Source: a phage
Direction: 5' to 3' (one strand)
Sequence record: OZ336094.1
DNA length: 64,000 nt
In this document: positions 4,046-45,515 of the stretch, in pieces
How positions within the stretch are numbered: position 1 is the first letter of the stretch
Layout: the number at the start of each line of letters is the position of its first letter
Translations under genes and position numbers: made by a program
The notes under the pieces: model-generated
The model's database searches: none
Seen by the model: the letters and a program-made list of their open reading frames with translations, nothing else
Told to the model about the DNA's origin: nothing

Positions 4046-4057
4046 TATATCTCCTTC

Positions 4058-4084
4058 AAAGAAAAGGAGCCGTTAGGCTCCTTA
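4058..4084 (-). terminator. Terminator hairpin (GGAGCC-GTTA-GGCTCC) downstream of the SSB-like gene
   Basis: Same stem as the 2898 hairpin; T-run follows on minus strand. Confidence 0.5.
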
Positions 4085-4105
4085 TATTCACACAATACTT
4101 AACTA

Positions 4106-5053
4106 TTAGAAACAGTGCAGGAAGTTTCGACCATACTGCAAACCAATAGGAGCAAATGGGATATCATCATCGAAGTCTTGAACAACAGGTTCTGGTTCTT
4201 TCGGTGCTGGCTCTTTCTTCTCTACTTTTTTAGTTTCTTTCTTAACTTCTTGTACTGGGGTAGACATTCCACGGATAGCAGCAGCTACTTTATCAGACAA
4301 AGCAAGAACTTCACGAGCAGCTTCAATAATCTCTTCTGCCGTTACAGTTTTACCTGTATGATCACGACAAGCGTTAAGAATTGCGTGTCCAACTGAAGCA
4401 CCAAGATCATAGTCAGTTACATCAACGCCACGATCTTTAGCAATTTCAGCTTTCAGAGTAACAGTTGCAGATTGTACCACACCAGCCAAGTCGAAAGCAT
4501 CACCTTTTACACCAGCACGTAGAAGCTCCAGAGCGCCGTTTACAGCGTGTCCTGTTTCAATCCCTACGGTATCACGTTTTTTGTAGTTAGGCTTGCTACC
4601 GTCATTATTAGAGGGCTTATTTCCACCTTTTGAAGAGGATTGTGCTTGCTGAACACCTTCTGTTGAAAGAATAGTGATTTTACCTTTAGAGGAGTTGTAG
4701 TATGTTTTGCCATTCCATTCAGAAGGTTTAACATCCATAGTTAGTTCTACACCTTTTTCGATAGTAACCCACTTATCACCATCTTTAACTTGCAGGTTTT
4801 CATGTTCTGGGTGCAGTTTAACTTCACCTAGGCTAACCCAAACACCTTTATCATCAGCACCAGCACCTTTCTCTTTAATAAGCAGAGATGCTTTGTGAGT
4901 TGATTCAATTTTCTTATCTGGCTGACCTGCAACCTTAATATAAGAGACTTTCATTTCATCAAACTTATCTAGTTTGACATATTCAACGATACCTTCAGCC
5001 CAGAATGCTTCTTTTTTAGTACGACGGTCGATTTCAGAATTAATTACTGGCAT
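4106..5053 (-). CDS. Single-stranded DNA-binding protein-like, with SSB-type acidic tip motif DFDDDIPF followed by a 15-aa extension
   Basis: 315 aa; C-terminal region ...VVQDFDDDIPFAPIGLQYGRNFLHCF; Gly/Ser/Asn-rich linker; location in replication module. Confidence 0.45.
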   Translation of the reverse strand: MPVINSEIDRRTKKEAFWAEGIVEYVKLDKFDEMKVSYIKVAGQPDKKIESTHKASLLIKEKGAGADDKGVWVSLGEVKLHPEHENLQVKDGDKWVTIEKGVELTMDVKPSEWNGKTYYNSSKGKITILSTEGVQQAQSSSKGGNKPSNNDGSKPNYKKRDTVGIETGHAVNGALELLRAGVKGDAFDLAGVVQSATVTLKAEIAKDRGVDVTDYDLGASVGHAILNACRDHTGKTVTAEEIIEAAREVLALSDKVAAAIRGMSTPVQEVKKETKKVEKKEPAPKEPEPVVQDFDDDIPFAPIGLQYGRNFLHCF

Positions 5054-5069
5054 AAATTCTCCTCTATAA

Positions 5070-5468
5070 TTACATTACTTTAACACAAAACTCTCGTAAA
5101 AGAGTAGCGTCAGTTTCTTCCAACAGGTATTTACCAAGACCAATACCAAATCCTATTTCACCACTTTCAAAATGGAGGATTTGTATCTTTTCTCCACCAA
5201 GGTTAATTACTTTTGCTTTTCCAGGATTATCCAAAACATCTCGTATTGTATCCTGTAGTAACATAAGTTCACGTTTTGTGATAGTGGTTTCAGATATCTC
5301 TTTGTTTTCTACTCTCACTGTTAAACGGTTGTATCCACCAAAGAGACATAGTATTTGAATAAAAAAGGTATTATCTTGAGGTTCAACATCTTTTTTAGTT
5401 AGCTCAAGACGATTAGTTTCTCTACTGTAGAACGTCTCGACTAAGATTTTAGAACGATTATCTGTCAT
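5070..5468 (-). CDS. Hypothetical protein, 132 aa
   Basis: Track ORF co-oriented in replication block; no motif recognised. Confidence 0.45.
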   Translation of the reverse strand: MTDNRSKILVETFYSRETNRLELTKKDVEPQDNTFFIQILCLFGGYNRLTVRVENKEISETTITKRELMLLQDTIRDVLDNPGKAKVINLGGEKIQILHFESGEIGFGIGLGKYLLEETDATLLREFCVKVM

Positions 5469-5511
5469 TCAAGTCCTCATAATAACACACAATTATAATG
5501 TTTGTCAACAC

Positions 5512-6105
5512 TTAAATTTTAAATTCTTCATTGTTAAATGAATCCAGTGTACGTACTTCTGGTTCTTTGGGAATGAAAACGTCTTTTACAAAGCGGAACA
5601 TGGGGAAACGTTCTGCCATTTTACGGACGTGTGCTTCTTTACCTGTGTATCGGTGATTAATAGTACAAATATTAGTTTTCAGTGCAAATTCAAAATCTGG
5701 ATGATATACATAATTTTGACCATCCCAGTAACACAAGCAAATAGCTACATCAAAGTTCCATACGATTTCACTGCGTACACCTTCTTCCATGATCATAAAG
5801 TTAAACTTAAGATCTTTATAGTATGCTTCAAATACCCATTTCAAATGTGGTAGTTCGGCATAAGTGTGTTCTGTTTGCTTAGTAAGTTGTTTAACATTAC
5901 GTGCACCAACACCCAACATCAAAAATTTCTCTACTAATACGAGTGTATTGTGGTTAGGCATACGCAAGTAAATGTCAATATCTTGCGCAGGTTTCTCTAA
6001 TCGCCAGTCACGTACAGCGCCGCCAGCTACAATTGCAAACGGATCTACCAGTTGGCACATACGTAATACTTCTAAAGCTCGTACTTTTTGATCTTCAATA
6101 TTCAT
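5512..6105 (-). CDS. Minimal nucleotidyltransferase, pol-beta superfamily (CCA-adding / poly(A) polymerase head-domain-like)
   Basis: Motif AIVAGGAVRDWRL...DIDIYL resembles the GGxVRD...DxD head motif of tRNA nucleotidyltransferases; only 197 aa. Confidence 0.4.
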   Translation of the reverse strand: MNIEDQKVRALEVLRMCQLVDPFAIVAGGAVRDWRLEKPAQDIDIYLRMPNHNTLVLVEKFLMLGVGARNVKQLTKQTEHTYAELPHLKWVFEAYYKDLKFNFMIMEEGVRSEIVWNFDVAICLCYWDGQNYVYHPDFEFALKTNICTINHRYTGKEAHVRKMAERFPMFRFVKDVFIPKEPEVRTLDSFNNEEFKI

Positions 6106-6242
6106 ATTTTCTCCTATCTCTTATGGTCTTTGCGTTATTCTAGATGTTCAAACATCTAATTATGAAATGGTTTAAAAGTGTGGAACAACCTTGGCAATAA
6201 TAGATTGTCCCACATAAAAACTCCTTTAAAATCAAAGAGATG

Positions 6243-8822
6243 TCAGTGACAACTAGCCCATGAGTTACCAACATCGTAACCAGCAGTGAGAGGTACATTA
6301 AGATTGTAATACTCACCAGCTTTATTAACAGCGATAGATGCTAATTCTCCAGCACGACTGTAGGCTGTAAACCAACCACCTTTCGGAGATTCATGTACGT
6401 TAGCCCAAATCTTGCCAGTACGTTTCTCTTCCTCTTCTTTCCAGGCATTAACTTTATCCAAACATTCTTTATCAATTTTCTTTTGTTCTTCTGGATCATC
6501 AACTTGAGTCCAACCTAAAGATTCTTTAGAGAACCATTTAAAATGCACCAGATCACGAGTTACTTCAAGCTGCGCTTCATCGTGATATGCAATCATTTGT
6601 TGAACGAATGACTTATTTTTCCAGTCATCAACAAAAAAGTCAACAGCTAATCCTTCTTCTTCGATAAGATCGTCGTAGATAACCATTGCTCTTTTTGCAC
6701 AAATAACACCACCACTCTGGAACAGAGAGTTAAGTATTGCGTGTGCAGATCGTGTAGGTACTTTTCTACCATCAATACCGAGAATGTATTTCTTACCTGT
6801 TTTAACCCAAAAATCATGCAGACGTTCTTTAAGAAGCGCAAGAGGTTTTGCAGCTTCCCAGAAAGCATCGTATACAAGCTGTCCTGTATACATATCACTA
6901 CCTATAGTTTTTGCTACTTTTGCAGCTTGAGCACCATAAGTAATACCATACTTAACAGATTTAGCAGGGCTTCGTTCAAACTTACGACCAATAGTGTCAG
7001 AAATACGTCGAGCCATCATTGTATGAACATCATTAGGTTTTTCCAATAATAGAGCATTACAATATTCGTGTGGTTCTTGCTCGTACCGCCAACAGTAGTG
7101 TGATTCTATTTTTGCCTCAAGAGAATCAAAGTCATAACCAATTTGGAAGTATTTTGGAACTTCTACACCAAATAAGTTACGCATTTCATATCCGTACAGA
7201 GATGTTACACGTGGGATATTTGCTACTAACCTATGTTTCATACGAGACGTAGCTGCATCACACGTTGCAGCAGGAGTTGGTATACGACCATCAGCCCTTA
7301 CTGCCGCCAGATAACCTTTATCGTAATCCTCTTCATCTTCTTCCCAATCAGCACCACCCCCTAGAATAGAGTTCCTACGGTGTTTATACGTAAGATACTG
7401 CACAATCTGCGTAGCATAAGGAAACTTTTCACCTAGTGCTTCCAAGTTAGGACAAATATCTTTCTCTTGCCCTTTTGTAAAGGAAGGGTTAGTAAGCACT
7501 TTAACACCACGACCTTTAGCTTTAGCAATACGATCTCTTAGTTTCCATTCCAAAGTTTCTGGTGTGCACTCTAGATGATCACATCTGTCCTGGCAGAAGT
7601 TAGATGCTAACGTTTGATCAACATAGTCACGAATAGCTTTCTCCATTTGTGCTTCATCTTTCTTAATCTTAGTGCCAGATTTAAGAGTGATATCTTTATC
7701 TTTGTATTCAGATGGACTCCAACCTAAACCAACTAACCAGTTTTTAATATGTGTAGTGTCGTCTAAAGTAGCAGGTACTGTAGGATCACAAATAGGTTCT
7801 TCTGCTGGAATAGGTAGTTTAAACTCCTTACCTAATGCAAATAGCCACCAACCATCTTCTTTTTGTACAAGTTCACCAGAATGTTTCTCTGCAAACTTTA
7901 TCATGTTACTTGAAGGTTCACCATTCTTTTTAAACTGTAGTTTAGGTGGAATGAATGATTTCAAATAACCTTTGGTAGCAGGTTTAGGAGGTAGCACAGG
8001 TTCTGCCTCTAAACGACATGCTTCCATTCGAGCATCCAGATCACGAATATTATCTTCTGCTTGTTTCATATTGAAAGCAAAGCCACGGTGCTCTTGACGT
8101 GTAATAATATCAGCTACACGTTGTTCTAAGTTAAATGGTTCAGACCACTTATTATAATCACCCCACTCTTCCATCAAATAACGGAACACTGCGGTGTTAG
8201 CTTTGTTATCGTAAATACAGTAATACAGCATATCTGCTGCAAATGTTTTAAATCTTTCAGTTTCAGGAATGTTTTTTCTAAAATCAATTTTAACATCCCC
8301 TCCAGCTTTCTTAGATAACTCTGCCAGACTATGACCACCGAAGCGATCAGGGTTTAGTGTCTTACTTAAGATCATAGTATCACAAATTTCAATGTTACTA
8401 TCACCCCAAGTATTGTACTTAACACTGTAGTTGAGTTTAAAAAATAATTTAATTGCCAGTAAGTCGAAGTTAATGATGTTGTGTCCAACTACTTTGGTAA
8501 TTTTATAGTTTGAATTACCTTTAAATTTACCTGTTCCATTTACAAAATCAGGAAAATCTTTAAGAGGGAAATGGGTATATTCTAAATGCTCATATTCCTC
8601 CAGTCGGTATTCATACTTTCCGTCAGTCTCAACATACGGACGACCATCGAAAAGATATTTATCACCATCATGGAAAGCAATAATCTCTCCAGTATCATGA
8701 CTTTCGCACACAATACAGTGCATTGCAAAACTATCTTTTAAACGATATGGACTTGCCAAGTAATCTACACTTTCGTCATTAAGCAAGTTGTTACTTTCAA
8801 TGTCGAAAGTAAAAGCTCCCAT
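6243..8822 (-). CDS. DNA polymerase, family A, with N-terminal 3'-5' exonuclease domain
   Basis: Exo motifs FDIE, GHNIINFD, YYCIYD; polymerase motif A-like DFDSLEAKI, motif B-like KSVKYGITYG, motif C YHDE; RBS ggaggg. Confidence 0.8.
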   Translation of the reverse strand: MGAFTFDIESNNLLNDESVDYLASPYRLKDSFAMHCIVCESHDTGEIIAFHDGDKYLFDGRPYVETDGKYEYRLEEYEHLEYTHFPLKDFPDFVNGTGKFKGNSNYKITKVVGHNIINFDLLAIKLFFKLNYSVKYNTWGDSNIEICDTMILSKTLNPDRFGGHSLAELSKKAGGDVKIDFRKNIPETERFKTFAADMLYYCIYDNKANTAVFRYLMEEWGDYNKWSEPFNLEQRVADIITRQEHRGFAFNMKQAEDNIRDLDARMEACRLEAEPVLPPKPATKGYLKSFIPPKLQFKKNGEPSSNMIKFAEKHSGELVQKEDGWWLFALGKEFKLPIPAEEPICDPTVPATLDDTTHIKNWLVGLGWSPSEYKDKDITLKSGTKIKKDEAQMEKAIRDYVDQTLASNFCQDRCDHLECTPETLEWKLRDRIAKAKGRGVKVLTNPSFTKGQEKDICPNLEALGEKFPYATQIVQYLTYKHRRNSILGGGADWEEDEEDYDKGYLAAVRADGRIPTPAATCDAATSRMKHRLVANIPRVTSLYGYEMRNLFGVEVPKYFQIGYDFDSLEAKIESHYCWRYEQEPHEYCNALLLEKPNDVHTMMARRISDTIGRKFERSPAKSVKYGITYGAQAAKVAKTIGSDMYTGQLVYDAFWEAAKPLALLKERLHDFWVKTGKKYILGIDGRKVPTRSAHAILNSLFQSGGVICAKRAMVIYDDLIEEEGLAVDFFVDDWKNKSFVQQMIAYHDEAQLEVTRDLVHFKWFSKESLGWTQVDDPEEQKKIDKECLDKVNAWKEEEEKRTGKIWANVHESPKGGWFTAYSRAGELASIAVNKAGEYYNLNVPLTAGYDVGNSWASCH

Positions 8823-11103: not shown

Positions 11104-11373
11104 CTAAAATGATTCGTTTGTCTCCATAATATATTGCATTTCCAAATCTTCCATATGTTTCTTAAATTGGTAAACAATTTCCGATGGGGAAATATCTATA
11201 TCAAAAAGTTCTTTTGTACCAGAATAAAATCTAATACCATCAACAATAAGACCACCATAATAATCCCAATCACTTTCTCGTGAGAAAGGATTAGGTTCTT
11301 CATAATAGTAATCTACTTCAACAATAATAGGTTCTTTATTATCTTGTTTATACTCAAAATCAAAAGTGTTCAT
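11104..11373 (-). CDS. Hypothetical protein, 89 aa
   Basis: Track ORF; acidic; start overlaps upstream gene stop. Confidence 0.4.
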   Translation of the reverse strand: MNTFDFEYKQDNKEPIIVEVDYYYEEPNPFSRESDWDYYGGLIVDGIRFYSGTKELFDIDISPSEIVYQFKKHMEDLEMQYIMETNESF

Positions 11374-12317
11374 TATAAATCCTCGATAAGCAGTCTGCGG
11401 GTTTCATTTAAATCATCAATATTGTAGTTATCTCTTACATACTTAGCAAGAGCCAATCCTTTCTCAATACAAACATCAGGAGATTCGATTAAGTATTCTA
11501 CAATATCTTTCCACTCTTTAACTGAATCAGCAAAGAAGATTAGATCTTTAAATTCTTCAGTATAATAGTTCTCTCGTGGAGAACAGACGAGTGGCAAACC
11601 TTTAGCACCAGCTTCAAGAATTTTTAAATTACTTTTGGCATTATTAAAATGATTATTTACTAATGGAGCTATGGAGATTTGATGACCATCGTATGCTTCC
11701 ATATAACACTCATAAGGACGAATACCTTCATAAACACAATCTGGTTGAATATCTTCTTTAATTTGCAACCATTGAGCACTACTTAACTCTTCGTGATCTC
11801 TACGAAATCCACATAAAGTTAAATCTTTACCAAAACCAGGAAGAATTGCTAAATCATGTTTATGTGTTTCACTTCCCGCCCAAACCAGTGGACTTTTAGA
11901 ATAACGGTCTTTCGTAAGAACAAACTGTCCTTCATCAAAAGGTAGTCCGTTAGGCACAATATGTACATTATCATTGTATTGGCTTAATTCAACCTTTAAT
12001 GCCGGAGTTGTTGTAGTTACAAGATCGCTTCTTTCAAGGAACCATTTTAGGTCATCTCGGATTTGATTTTCAAATAATCCTTCAAGCATATGCCCTTCAG
12101 GAATAATTAAAGAATCATCCAGATCCATTACCAATTTAAACCCAAGTTGTTTAAGAGCCAGGAAACCTGGCTTTCCACGTGTTGGTACTCCATTGAACAC
12201 AAAAATATTATGCTTAGGATTAATGGTCAGTTTGCGTTTATATGGCAAAATGATTCTATGAAAATCACATACACTATACTTTTCATTTCCGCGTGTGTCA
12301 AGAATAATATTAGGCAT
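11373..12317 (-). CDS. Putative GT-B fold glycosyltransferase (paralog 1)
   Basis: C-terminal motif KILEAGAKGLPLVCSP resembles the nucleotide-sugar-binding E..G..EA.A.G.P motif of GT1/GT4 enzymes; paralogous to 12329..13342. Confidence 0.45.
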   Translation of the reverse strand: MPNIILDTRGNEKYSVCDFHRIILPYKRKLTINPKHNIFVFNGVPTRGKPGFLALKQLGFKLVMDLDDSLIIPEGHMLEGLFENQIRDDLKWFLERSDLVTTTTPALKVELSQYNDNVHIVPNGLPFDEGQFVLTKDRYSKSPLVWAGSETHKHDLAILPGFGKDLTLCGFRRDHEELSSAQWLQIKEDIQPDCVYEGIRPYECYMEAYDGHQISIAPLVNNHFNNAKSNLKILEAGAKGLPLVCSPRENYYTEEFKDLIFFADSVKEWKDIVEYLIESPDVCIEKGLALAKYVRDNYNIDDLNETRRLLIEDL

Positions 12318-12328
12318 ATAGCTCCTTA

Positions 12329-13342
12329 TTAAAGACTTTCAATAACTTGACGACGCAGTTCATTGGCATCTGCAAGATTATAATTAAGACGAACGTGTTC
12401 TGCAAGCATCATACCACGATCTTCTGTGTATCTAGGGTTCCTCATTAGCTTGACAACTTCATAATGCCAAGATGCTTTAGAGTCTGCATAGATAACAGCC
12501 TTTGCATCTACCGGATTGAAGTACGGCAGCACAGGAGAACAGATAATAGGAAGACCCTTTGCACCTGCTTCCAAAATCTTCAAATTGCTTTTACAGTTGT
12601 TGAAGTCATTATCTACCAGAGGAGCAATTGCAATACTGTGACCGTCATACACAGACATATACTCACCTAAATTTTTAATAGCTGGTTTATACTGTGCATT
12701 TGGAATTTTACGTTTTATTTTAACCCACTCCGCAGTAGTTAGATACTGACTGTTATTTCCAACAGGTGCAGAAGGATACACTTCATACCCTGCAATTGTC
12801 AATAGTGTATCATCAAATGTATTAGCTACAAGAGATAAATCAGGTTCATGGCTTGCTCCTCCAGCCCAAACAATAGGTGTGTCAGAATAACGGTCTTTTG
12901 TTAAAGTAAATTGACCTTCGTCGTAAGGCAGTGCGTTTCTAATAACGACAACATTACGATTTAAATGACGAATTTTGTAAGCTAGGTATTCTGTTGTTAC
13001 TGTAACAACATCTGCTAACTTAACCATCTCTACAATAGTTTTTGAGTGATTAGTAAATACGCCAGCCATATAATGTTCAGGATTAAGCGAATAAAAATCA
13101 TCTAAATCAACAATAATCTTAACACCTTGTGCCTTCAGGCGTTTAACTTCGTCTGATCCACGAGAATACACTCTATTAAAAACTAAAACGTCTTTCTTAG
13201 GCTTAAACGTATTTCCCGCAAATGGCATTACAATACGATGGTAATCACAACCACTGCCTAACTTATTATCACACTTAAGTACAGGAGTATTAGGATTTAC
13301 CATATTTTTGAGCCTCCTCATAAGAGATAAAAGTTTTACCAT
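12329..13342 (-). CDS. Putative GT-B fold glycosyltransferase (paralog 2)
   Basis: Shares motifs with neighbour (DLDD, LTKDRYS, PIVWAGG, KILEAGAKGLPIICSP); tandem paralog. Confidence 0.45.
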   Translation of the reverse strand: MVKLLSLMRRLKNMVNPNTPVLKCDNKLGSGCDYHRIVMPFAGNTFKPKKDVLVFNRVYSRGSDEVKRLKAQGVKIIVDLDDFYSLNPEHYMAGVFTNHSKTIVEMVKLADVVTVTTEYLAYKIRHLNRNVVVIRNALPYDEGQFTLTKDRYSDTPIVWAGGASHEPDLSLVANTFDDTLLTIAGYEVYPSAPVGNNSQYLTTAEWVKIKRKIPNAQYKPAIKNLGEYMSVYDGHSIAIAPLVDNDFNNCKSNLKILEAGAKGLPIICSPVLPYFNPVDAKAVIYADSKASWHYEVVKLMRNPRYTEDRGMMLAEHVRLNYNLADANELRRQVIESL

Positions 13343-14053
13343 TGCGAAGATCCTCCAGTGATTGTTTATATTGTTCCCAGTTTACACCAATCCCCTGTTC
13401 TTTCTCTTCTTTTGACAGATTCGCAAAAGGTAAAGGATTATCTCCAAACACATCGTCAGGATGGATAAACGCCATAATTCGAATAGGACATGGTACACCG
13501 AGAATGCCTCGGTTCAAACCTGCCAGTGGAACGCGCTGAATCCACTCTGCATCTTCATATCCATAACCGTGGGTGTATGAGCGGAAATAGCCAGCTTTCT
13601 CAATAACTGCACGGGAATACATACCAAACTGGCACATACCTAGTTCCCAAATAACCACCTCCCCTTCAATACCTTTTACTTTATCTTTAAAGTATTCAGG
13701 CATACCAAAGAAATCCCAACCATTTTCCTTTGCCTCTCCCCTTCAATACCTTTTACTTTATCTTTAAAGTATTCAGGCATACCAAAGAAATCCCAACCAT
13801 TTTCCTTTGCCTGTTTTACAAAATATGTTTCCCACCCTGGAACAACAGGATAGCAATCATCATCAAAAATAAACCAGTAGTCATACCCTTCATCATAAAA
13901 CTTTTTCATCAGTTCATTACGGGCATATGCAACACCTTTTCGTTCACGATCATACTGTACAACAAAAGTAGCATTAGGATCAGTCACAAGATAATCTTTA
14001 AGAGGACGCTTACCTACAGTAATAACACCAACACCAATTTTTGTATTTTCCAA
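13290..14053 (-). pseudogene. GT-A-like glycosyltransferase gene disrupted by a 77-bp perfect tandem duplication (frameshift)
   Basis: Track ORFs 13676..14053 and 13290..13703 both encode GMPEYFKDKVKGIEGE; removing one repeat copy restores a single ~237-aa ORF with a DDD motif (YDYWFIFDDDCYP). Confidence 0.6.
13659..13812. repeat. Perfect direct tandem duplication, 2 x 77 bp, inside a coding sequence
   Basis: Identical copies at about 13659-13735 and 13736-13812 (ctccccttcaatacc...ttttcctttgcct); 77 is not a multiple of 3. Confidence 0.85.
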
Positions 14054-14062
14054 AATAACTCC

Positions 14063-14626
14063 TTAAATAATTTTATTCATGTCTTGACAATGTAAAAGGT
14101 GTGAAACAGCTTTTCTAGGATCATCATTACCTAAACGGTATGTGTGAAATAAATATAACCCACGTAGTAAACCTAGCCTTTTATTGTTAGCGTGCAATGC
14201 TTTAGAGAAAATTATATCAAACTGTATTGATCTTTCCTCAAAAGGGATTTCATTCCACAGACTCTTACGAAAGAGAAGAAAGAATCCTGCTAAGATAGCA
14301 TCTGTAGGTACTTCCTCTATTGAGTTTCCCCATTCTAGATGTGCTCTTTTTGCAATCTCAATGTGGTGTAATATATTCGGATCTTCACTTCTTTCATTAT
14401 TAAATAATTGATATGTTGATCCCAATCTGTTACAAGATGCACCAAGAACATCAAAATCAGGATTTGAACGGACAATTGATTCCAGCCAAGCAGGTTGTTC
14501 TGGAAGAAGAAACATTGTATCAATGTCTCTTAGGCAAATCCAACTATCTTCTGGTAAGACACTTATTGTGTCATTGATACCTTTTCCAATATCTCCAGAA
14601 AGATAGGGAGTTATGTGAAATATCAT
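14063..14626 (-). CDS. Hypothetical protein, possible nucleotide-sugar transferase
   Basis: 187 aa; DxD-like segment WICLRDIDTMF; sits in the glycosyltransferase cluster; weak call. Confidence 0.3.
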   Translation of the reverse strand: MIFHITPYLSGDIGKGINDTISVLPEDSWICLRDIDTMFLLPEQPAWLESIVRSNPDFDVLGASCNRLGSTYQLFNNERSEDPNILHHIEIAKRAHLEWGNSIEEVPTDAILAGFFLLFRKSLWNEIPFEERSIQFDIIFSKALHANNKRLGLLRGLYLFHTYRLGNDDPRKAVSHLLHCQDMNKII

Positions 14627-44964: not shown

Positions 44965-45180
44965 TATTTTGAAAATTTTTATTTTTATAAAAAGGGGTGT
45001 GGGTTTCATGTACGGAAATTCACCCTCTGCACAGTATATCCAGAGTAAGTAGTATTCTACACCCTGTTAATAAAGTATTTAATTTGTTTGTTGGACTATG
45101 GTATCTGATCTTTAAAAGACATACTATCTCTTAACTACTACTTATAACAGAACAGTAAAATCATTTTTATAAAAAGTACA

Positions 45181-45382
45181 AAATTATTTAAAGTTTTTAC
45201 AGATTTTTGGGTACAAATTTTGAAAATGAAAAGTTCAAGTTTGGTCAAAATTATTTAAAGTTTTTGTACGTATTTCTGTCCAGATTTTGAAAATGAAAAC
45301 TTCAATTTTTTAAAAATTCCCCAGTTTATTTAAAGTTTTTTTGCCTTTTTCCGTAGAAAAATCAAAAATGAAAAGTTCAATT
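45181..45382. repeat. Three imperfect direct repeats of about 66-76 bp, each with TATTTAAAGTTTTT and TTGAAAATGAAAAGTTCAA blocks
   Basis: Seen directly; conserved blocks with 34-37 nt spacing; ORF-free AT-rich DNA. Confidence 0.7.
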
Positions 45383-45401
45383 TCGTGTTTTTATAGGTGT
45401 G

Positions 45402-45515
45402 TTAATGAGAATCATTTTCGTTTGTAAATGAGAATCATTATCATTTAACTATGTAAGTGATAATCATTCTCAGTAAGAGAATGAGAATCATTAGCAAATG
45501 AGAATTTTCTCATTT
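45402..45515. promoter_or_regulatory. Array of five or more palindromic AATGA-GAA-TCATT boxes (Fur-box-like)
   Basis: AATGAGAATCATT x3, GTGATAATCATTCTC, and perfect palindrome ATGAGAATTTTCTCAT; one base from the Fur core AATGATAATCATT. Confidence 0.5.

Follow-up and report, generated by a model that had tools for sequence, protein, structure and literature searches.

A perfect 77-bp tandem repeat that splits a glycosyltransferase gene in a phi92-like Escherichia phage record is most likely an untrimmed assembly overlap

Introduction

Glycosyltransferases are classic targets of phase-variable contingency loci, in which a change in repeat copy number shifts the reading frame of a gene for a surface or modification enzyme, and spontaneous duplications in phages and bacteria usually form between short direct repeats. 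Perfect repeats are also generated by short-read assembly. The default final k values of SPAdes are 55, 77, 99 and 127, and the largest default k is 77 for reads of up to 150 nt and 127 for longer reads. SPAdes contigs of circularly permuted phages have been found with an identical 77 bp at both ends (PMC9409062), and repeats of ~79 bp in short-read Shovill/SPAdes phage assemblies were identified, by Sanger sequencing, as artefacts in most of those phages (PMC10438801).

The window analysed here, the whole stretch of 64,000 nt taken from sequence record OZ336094.1, contains two adjacent, identical 77-bp copies within a gene that resembles a GT-A glycosyltransferase. A sequence-only reading of the window interpreted this arrangement as a very recent event, and offered as explanations a reversible on/off switch, a genuine pseudogene and, last, an assembly artefact. 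The evidence reported below best supports the last of these three options.

Results and Discussion

The phage and its glycosyltransferase cluster

The window is from a Justusliebigvirus (phi92-like, Stephanstirmvirinae), an Escherichia phage with E. coli as host. The nearest record is that of phage Paula (LR865361.1), from which the first 35 kb of the window differ by 40 substitutions plus exactly the 77-bp insertion, and to which the remaining 30 kb are 99.7% identical. Thirty-six of the 40 substitutions fall in 4047-8633, within a hypothetical gene and the DNA polymerase gene, with one substitution in the 21 kb beyond this region, a pattern in the sequence that looks like a recombination patch.

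The insertion is located in the homologue of phi92 gp165, the third gene of a four-gene glycosyltransferase cluster that extends from gp163 to gp166 (Table 1). The gp163-like and gp164-like genes (window 11373-13342, minus strand) both match phrog_7162 with E values below 1e-140 and share a 102-nt stretch, repeat family D7, that is 74% identical between them; their paralogy therefore points to an old tandem gene duplication within the cluster. In related phages, the gp164-like gene is annotated as encoding 324 aa from an internal start. A search of the literature for the function of this cluster found nothing specific.

Table 1. Coordinates in the window of the repeat copies, the split gene and the neighbouring glycosyltransferase genes.
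Feature	Position	Strand	Details
Copy 1 of the 77-bp unit	13659..13735	.	Tandem Repeats Finder; matches copy 2 letter for letter
Copy 2 of the 77-bp unit	13736..13812	.	Tandem Repeats Finder; string identity with copy 1
N-terminal fragment ORF of the gp165-like glycosyltransferase	13676..14053	-	125 aa, TTG start
C-terminal fragment ORF	13290..13703	-	137 aa, internal ATG start
Whole phi92-gp165 / Paula_0153 homologue	13290..14053	-	687 nt, 228 aa after removal of one 77-bp copy
phi92-gp164-like glycosyltransferase, downstream neighbour	12329..13342	-	phrog_7162
phi92-gp166-like glycosyltransferase, upstream neighbour	14063..14626	-	phrog_14179, 187 aa
phi92-gp163-like glycosyltransferase, gp164 paralogue	11373..12317	-	phrog_7162; repeat family D7

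Structure of the repeat

Direct string comparison identifies an exact head-to-tail repeat of 2 x 77 bp at 13659-13812, and Tandem Repeats Finder reports a single array at the same position (period 77, 2.0 copies, 100% matches, 0 indels, score 308), so the perfect tandem duplication described from the sequence alone is borne out. On the plus strand, copy 1 extends from CTCCCCTTCAATACC to CCTTTGCCT, and at the copy-to-copy junction, 13735/13736, CCTTTGCCT is followed directly by CTCCCCTTC (also written as CCATTTTCCTTTGCCT followed by CTCCCCTTCAATACC). Identity at a period of 77 extends over exactly 154 nt, with no extra matching base on either flank, and there is therefore zero microhomology at the junction. 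This is the sole perfect long repeat in the 64-kb window, and a 31-mer that spans the junction occurs once in the window and in none of 100 shuffles. Inspection of the locus for other long direct or inverted repeats, and for a simple-sequence tract, found none.

As 77 mod 3 is 2, the additional copy shifts the reading frame by 2 nt, as had been stated, and the peptide MPEYFKDKVKGIEGE is indeed encoded twice. The division of the gene into two minus-strand ORFs, 13676-14053 and 13290-13703, is also confirmed, with the final 20 codons of the 125-aa ORF located out of frame, across the junction. The size predicted for the restored protein, ~237 aa, requires correction, as deletion of one copy results in a gene of 687 nt that encodes 228 aa. 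This 228-aa protein is identical to the corresponding proteins of phages Paula, arall and PaulScherrer.

The restored gene product

With one 77-bp copy removed, as is needed for an end-to-end match, residues 3-221 of the restored protein align with positions 2-239 of the 239 in the PHROG 2456 'glycosyltransferase' profile (E = 1.2e-78). Residues 64-66 (D64-D65-D66) are invariant in 18 sequences down to 35% identity, and this DDD conforms to the DxD motif of metal and nucleotide-sugar binding. To stand in for the restored protein, a homologue with 78% identity was modelled with AlphaFold2 (pLDDT 88.6, pTM 0.87), and nearly all of the top PDB matches that Foldseek returned for this model are GT-A glycosyltransferases, with modest TM-scores of 0.3-0.5. 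The best match is STIV A197 (E = 4.5e-6), followed by WrtF, CHSY3 (chondroitin synthase), the LH3 GT domain and TarP. A sequence search of the PDB was empty.

The profile match, the invariant DDD and the predicted, Rossmann-like GT-A fold of the modelled homologue support the assignment of the gene product as a GT-A-like glycosyltransferase, in agreement with the sequence-only reading. In these three respects the gene resembles phi92 gp165 and the other members of PHROG 2456, and it belongs, as an ordinary member, to a known family of phage GT-A glycosyltransferases; it differs in being split as written in the window. The Pfam family TAGT (TET-associated glycosyltransferase, PF20691) was also considered but, as the score of 23.3 bits, obtained with residues 16-75 only, is below the gathering cut-off of 27.5, the protein was not assigned to this family.

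Search for the duplication in related genomes and metagenomes

Related genomes were searched for single-copy variants, a check that had been proposed with the original description, and the segment is present as a single copy in all 56 related phage records. These align to the 1001-nt region that includes the repeat over 921-924 nt, that is 1001 minus 77. A 100-nt query centred on the junction never gave a one-piece alignment in related records and, in the 52 records that matched both halves of the query, the halves map back onto <=77 nt. The junction 31-mer is absent from IMG/VR and from the JGI metagenome and GTDB genome contigs, and the 125-aa fragment that includes the junction is absent from a gene-position index and from a collection of ~15 billion proteins. 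Intact 228-aa alleles are present on >400 contigs, with five alleles alone present on 38, 264, 66, 32 and 10 contigs, respectively. All 17 distant homologues (35-78% identity; 209-240 aa) have the segment as a single copy, and an intact, single-copy gene of 685-687 nt is present in 10 of 11 further contigs examined. The two-copy state occurs in this window only; everywhere else examined, the segment is single-copy.

Four records with a 'Campylobacter phage' title (MG065639.1, MG065645.1, MG065656.1 and MG065689.1), all UNVERIFIED, unannotated and with Campylobacter jejuni listed as the host, are 97.6% identical over the locus to this group of E. coli phages. The host given for these records is probably erroneous or a result of contamination.

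Untrimmed overlaps in related records

The ends of nine sampled Justusliebigvirus records were compared, and in four (Paula, pEC-M2929-1AR.1, KKE7M and PATM; accessions LR865361.1, OP177727.1, PQ356295.1 and OX090893.1) the first and last 127 nt are exactly the same. Of the other five, one (arall, MN850584.1) has an overlap of 19 nt and four have none. The Paula record is a raw SPAdes contig, as documented by 'NODE_1_length_146554_cov_304.445' in its annotation, and its 127-nt end overlap splits the gene for a glucose-1-phosphate thymidylyltransferase, which was marked as pseudo by the submitters. The pEC-M2929-1AR.1 record is flagged as circular and, given the overlap, therefore contains 127 surplus bases; read through the origin, it would show a perfect 127-bp tandem duplication. 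The record for Eryne, which has no overlap, begins at the large terminase gene, a hint that some records of the group have been re-oriented. Untrimmed k-mer overlaps are, based on this sample, widespread in the genus, and result in false pseudogenes at record ends and in false 'recent duplications' in records that are rotated or treated as circular.

Other lesions in gp165 homologues

A look-up of the 137-aa C-terminal fragment as an exact, separate product identified only two ENA metagenome contigs, L005 and L006, which have different lesions. L005 (ERZ28591284, HAYD20-1_SAMN10722261_METAG-scaffold_75), from an infant-gut metagenome, is from a different strain, and the sequence upstream of its deletion junction is 98.3-99.3% identical to the window. 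It lacks the equivalent of window 13813-14063, 251 bp that span the start and N-terminus of gp165, with the junction at L005:3545. The sequence there reads ATTATTT-A-GGCAAAGG (junction sequence ATTATTTAGGCAAAGG). Downstream of the junction, L005 begins at the first base of the 77-mer, in the minus-strand reading and with a 1-nt ambiguity, and the deletion breakpoint is thus the repeat-unit boundary, 13812/13813, to within 1 nt. The look-up returns only alleles in which the internal ATG starts the called gene, leaving ~120 nt of possible breakpoints, and the chance of an exact coincidence is therefore estimated at ~2%. The L005 junction is absent from IMG/VR, and an examination of the locus for a cause of the 13812/13813 breakpoint found no long repeat or structure, with a microhomology of 0-1 nt.

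The possibility that the join in L005 is a scaffolding-gap artefact was rejected because the junction is within a continuous 1128-nt segment, away from N gaps. Elsewhere, L005 does have a gap of 251 N, the length of the deletion, which we regard as a coincidence.

The lesion in L006 (ERZ26178400 NODE_22059, 1.37x coverage; L006:277-290) is unrelated and consists of a loss of 22 nt from the N-terminal part of gp165. In a third contig, L008 (Logan SRR8428005_187, 139 kb; L008:1086-1773), a T5 to T6 homopolymer change causes a frameshift just upstream of the DDD motif. The L006 and L008 lesions could each be either a real inactivation or an assembly error. From these sequences, gp165 is occasionally found broken, although such alleles are rare beside the >400 that are intact, and some may be assembly errors. 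Genuine inactivation of the gene is therefore not, in itself, implausible.

Origin of the repeat

We consider it very likely that the 77-bp duplication is an untrimmed end overlap from a SPAdes assembly with k = 77, and so an error in the record. A circular or circularly permuted genome would close on itself in the de Bruijn graph at a final k of 77, and would be emitted as a linear contig with its first k bases present again at its end. This overlap would become internal if the contig were then rotated untrimmed, for example when re-oriented to a chosen start gene, or, alternatively, if the record were treated as circular and read through the origin. Position 13735/13736 would then be the former contig end and start, one copy would be a surplus k-mer overlap, and the true phage genome would be single-copy, with an intact gp165-like gene encoding a GT-A glycosyltransferase of 228 aa. 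That SPAdes assembled this genome, and that the contig was then rotated or read across its origin, are both inferred.

A k-mer overlap is expected, therefore, to generate perfect copies with zero microhomology, at an arbitrary position within a gene, and to be unique among relatives. The observations conform to this expectation. The length of the repeat is k-mer-sized, with a period of 77 and a periodic region of 154 nt; the two copies match at every base, and microhomology at the junction is zero; related genomes close as circles, as documented by the identical first and last 127 nt in four of nine records; and the additional copy is missing from all 56 related records, with no trace of the junction in three DNA collections or of the peptide encoded across it in a protein collection. 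The repeat differs from a SPAdes terminal overlap in that the copies are adjacent and internal, which requires the rotation or read-through, and from the overlaps in the related records, which are 127 nt and at the record ends, in being 77 nt and internal. The artefacts confirmed by Sanger sequencing (PMC10438801) are similarly short, perfect repeats of approximately k length inside phage assemblies, but they are present in T7-like phages, near true direct terminal repeats, and are ~79 nt rather than 77 nt in length.

The alternative that a genuine, very recent 77-bp tandem duplication occurred in the phage stock, generating a fresh gp165-like pseudogene that was tolerated because the gene would be dispensable during laboratory propagation, is unlikely. 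The duplication is present in the sequence as given, the independent lesions in L005, L006 and L008 suggest that loss of gp165 is possible in the wild, and the breakpoint is common to L005. However, a genuine duplication would have to match a default SPAdes k in length by chance, the junction lacks microhomology, untrimmed k-mer overlaps are common in the genus, and the duplication is in no other genome or contig searched. Two of the other lesions are, furthermore, from low-coverage or scaffolded metagenome assemblies, and these lesions surfaced in a search that could return only broken alleles. With a length equal to a default k, and no related record or metagenome contig that carries the duplication, the interpretation as a very recent biological event is unsupported. 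The coincidence with L005 is also consistent with 13812/13813 being a genuine, recurrent breakage or template-switch site in phi92-like phages, a very unlikely explanation, in which the same nucleotide would have been joined to a partner upstream here, which gave the 77-bp duplication, and to one downstream in L005, which gave the 251-bp deletion. If this were so, gp165 would be a rearrangement hot spot at which the gene is inactivated, and might also be a contingency locus for a glycosylation function of the phage. The coincidence could also be accommodated by an assembly overlap. The 77-mer is exactly the first k-mer common to the wild-type and L005-type deletion paths at k = 77, and the point at which SPAdes opened the circle could have been set by a low-frequency deletion variant, or by chimeric reads, in the sequenced lysate, but this would require that an identical deletion arose in two different strains.

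That gain and loss of a 77-bp copy, by slipped-strand events or homologous recombination, serves as a reversible on/off switch for a modification glycosyltransferase is highly improbable. Loss of one copy restores the frame exactly, and a perfect 77-bp direct repeat could, in principle, be deleted; as in phase-variable contingency loci, a change in repeat copy number would throw the gene for a surface or modification enzyme out of frame. Such loci have, however, short simple-sequence tracts and vary recurrently, whereas the 77-bp duplication here is single and unique, and the locus has neither a tract prone to slippage nor homology at its flanks. As there is also no microhomology from which to remake the same duplication, the OFF state could not be precisely re-created. 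A switch predicts that both states recur, but only the single-copy state was found in the 56 isolates and >400 contigs, leaving the proposed switch without support, and all the arguments against a real duplication also apply. It is extremely improbable that the virion genome is linear and has the 77-bp unit as a true, short direct repeat at each end, and that this sequence was rotated as if it were circular. This would give the same picture, and the segment break at the unit boundary in L005 could mimic a physical end. The unit is, however, within a conserved gene, none of the 56 related records starts or ends at the unit, and their origins are scattered. The relatives close as circles, with k-mer overlaps at arbitrary positions that fit circular permutation, and the L005 junction is inside a contiguous segment rather than at a contig end.

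On the best-supported reading, an assembly overlap, the 77-bp duplication is most likely not a real genomic feature, and its main value is as a data-quality flag. The record would then be 77 bases too long, with a glycosyltransferase gene that is split in error, and one 77-bp copy should be trimmed, and the intact 228-aa glycosyltransferase annotated, before comparative or functional inferences are drawn. A perfect two-copy tandem repeat of 55, 77, 99, 127 or 141 nt could be used as a filter in genome scans. A real duplication would amount to a modest finding, namely that an accessory gene had recently become a pseudogene.

Other features of the window

Scans of the window for tRNAs and for Rfam families returned no matches. 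Several other repeats are present. Between 46405 and 55606, there are 5-6 dispersed repeats, separated by 0.4-3.8 kb, in which a conserved GC-rich hairpin (GGGCGGGAAATGGTTTCCCGCC or GGGCGGCAATAGTGCCGCTC) comes after a sigma70-like, promoter-like TTGACA...TA(A/T)GAT/TATAGT stretch. Based on their sequences, these look like repeated units of an early promoter plus a 5' stem-loop. At 45163-45383, an AT-rich unit of 67-75 nt is repeated three times in tandem, imperfectly (72%; period 67 and 82% matches in Tandem Repeats Finder), and is adjoined by a 23-nt tandem repeat at 45400-45446, forming an intergenic repeat cluster.

Beside the DNA polymerase gene, a 197-aa ORF (5512-6105, minus strand) occupies the place in the gene order that, in homologous contigs, belongs to the gene for a 197-aa product with a precomputed match to Pfam PF26128 (Gad2). 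The exact DNA polymerase encoded in the window was found only on a 4-kb Logan contig, which is from a different strain with 24 mismatches to the window. The polymerase has a length of 859 aa in the window, as in most relatives, whereas one ENA contig (L014; ERZ27282657 k141_61033, 5495-8809) encodes a version of 1104 aa, and the annotation of PaulScherrer (MZ501100.1) lists an 'intein-containing DNA polymerase precursor'. These differences in the encoded sequences suggest that the DNA polymerase genes of this phage group are polymorphic for the presence or absence of an intein.
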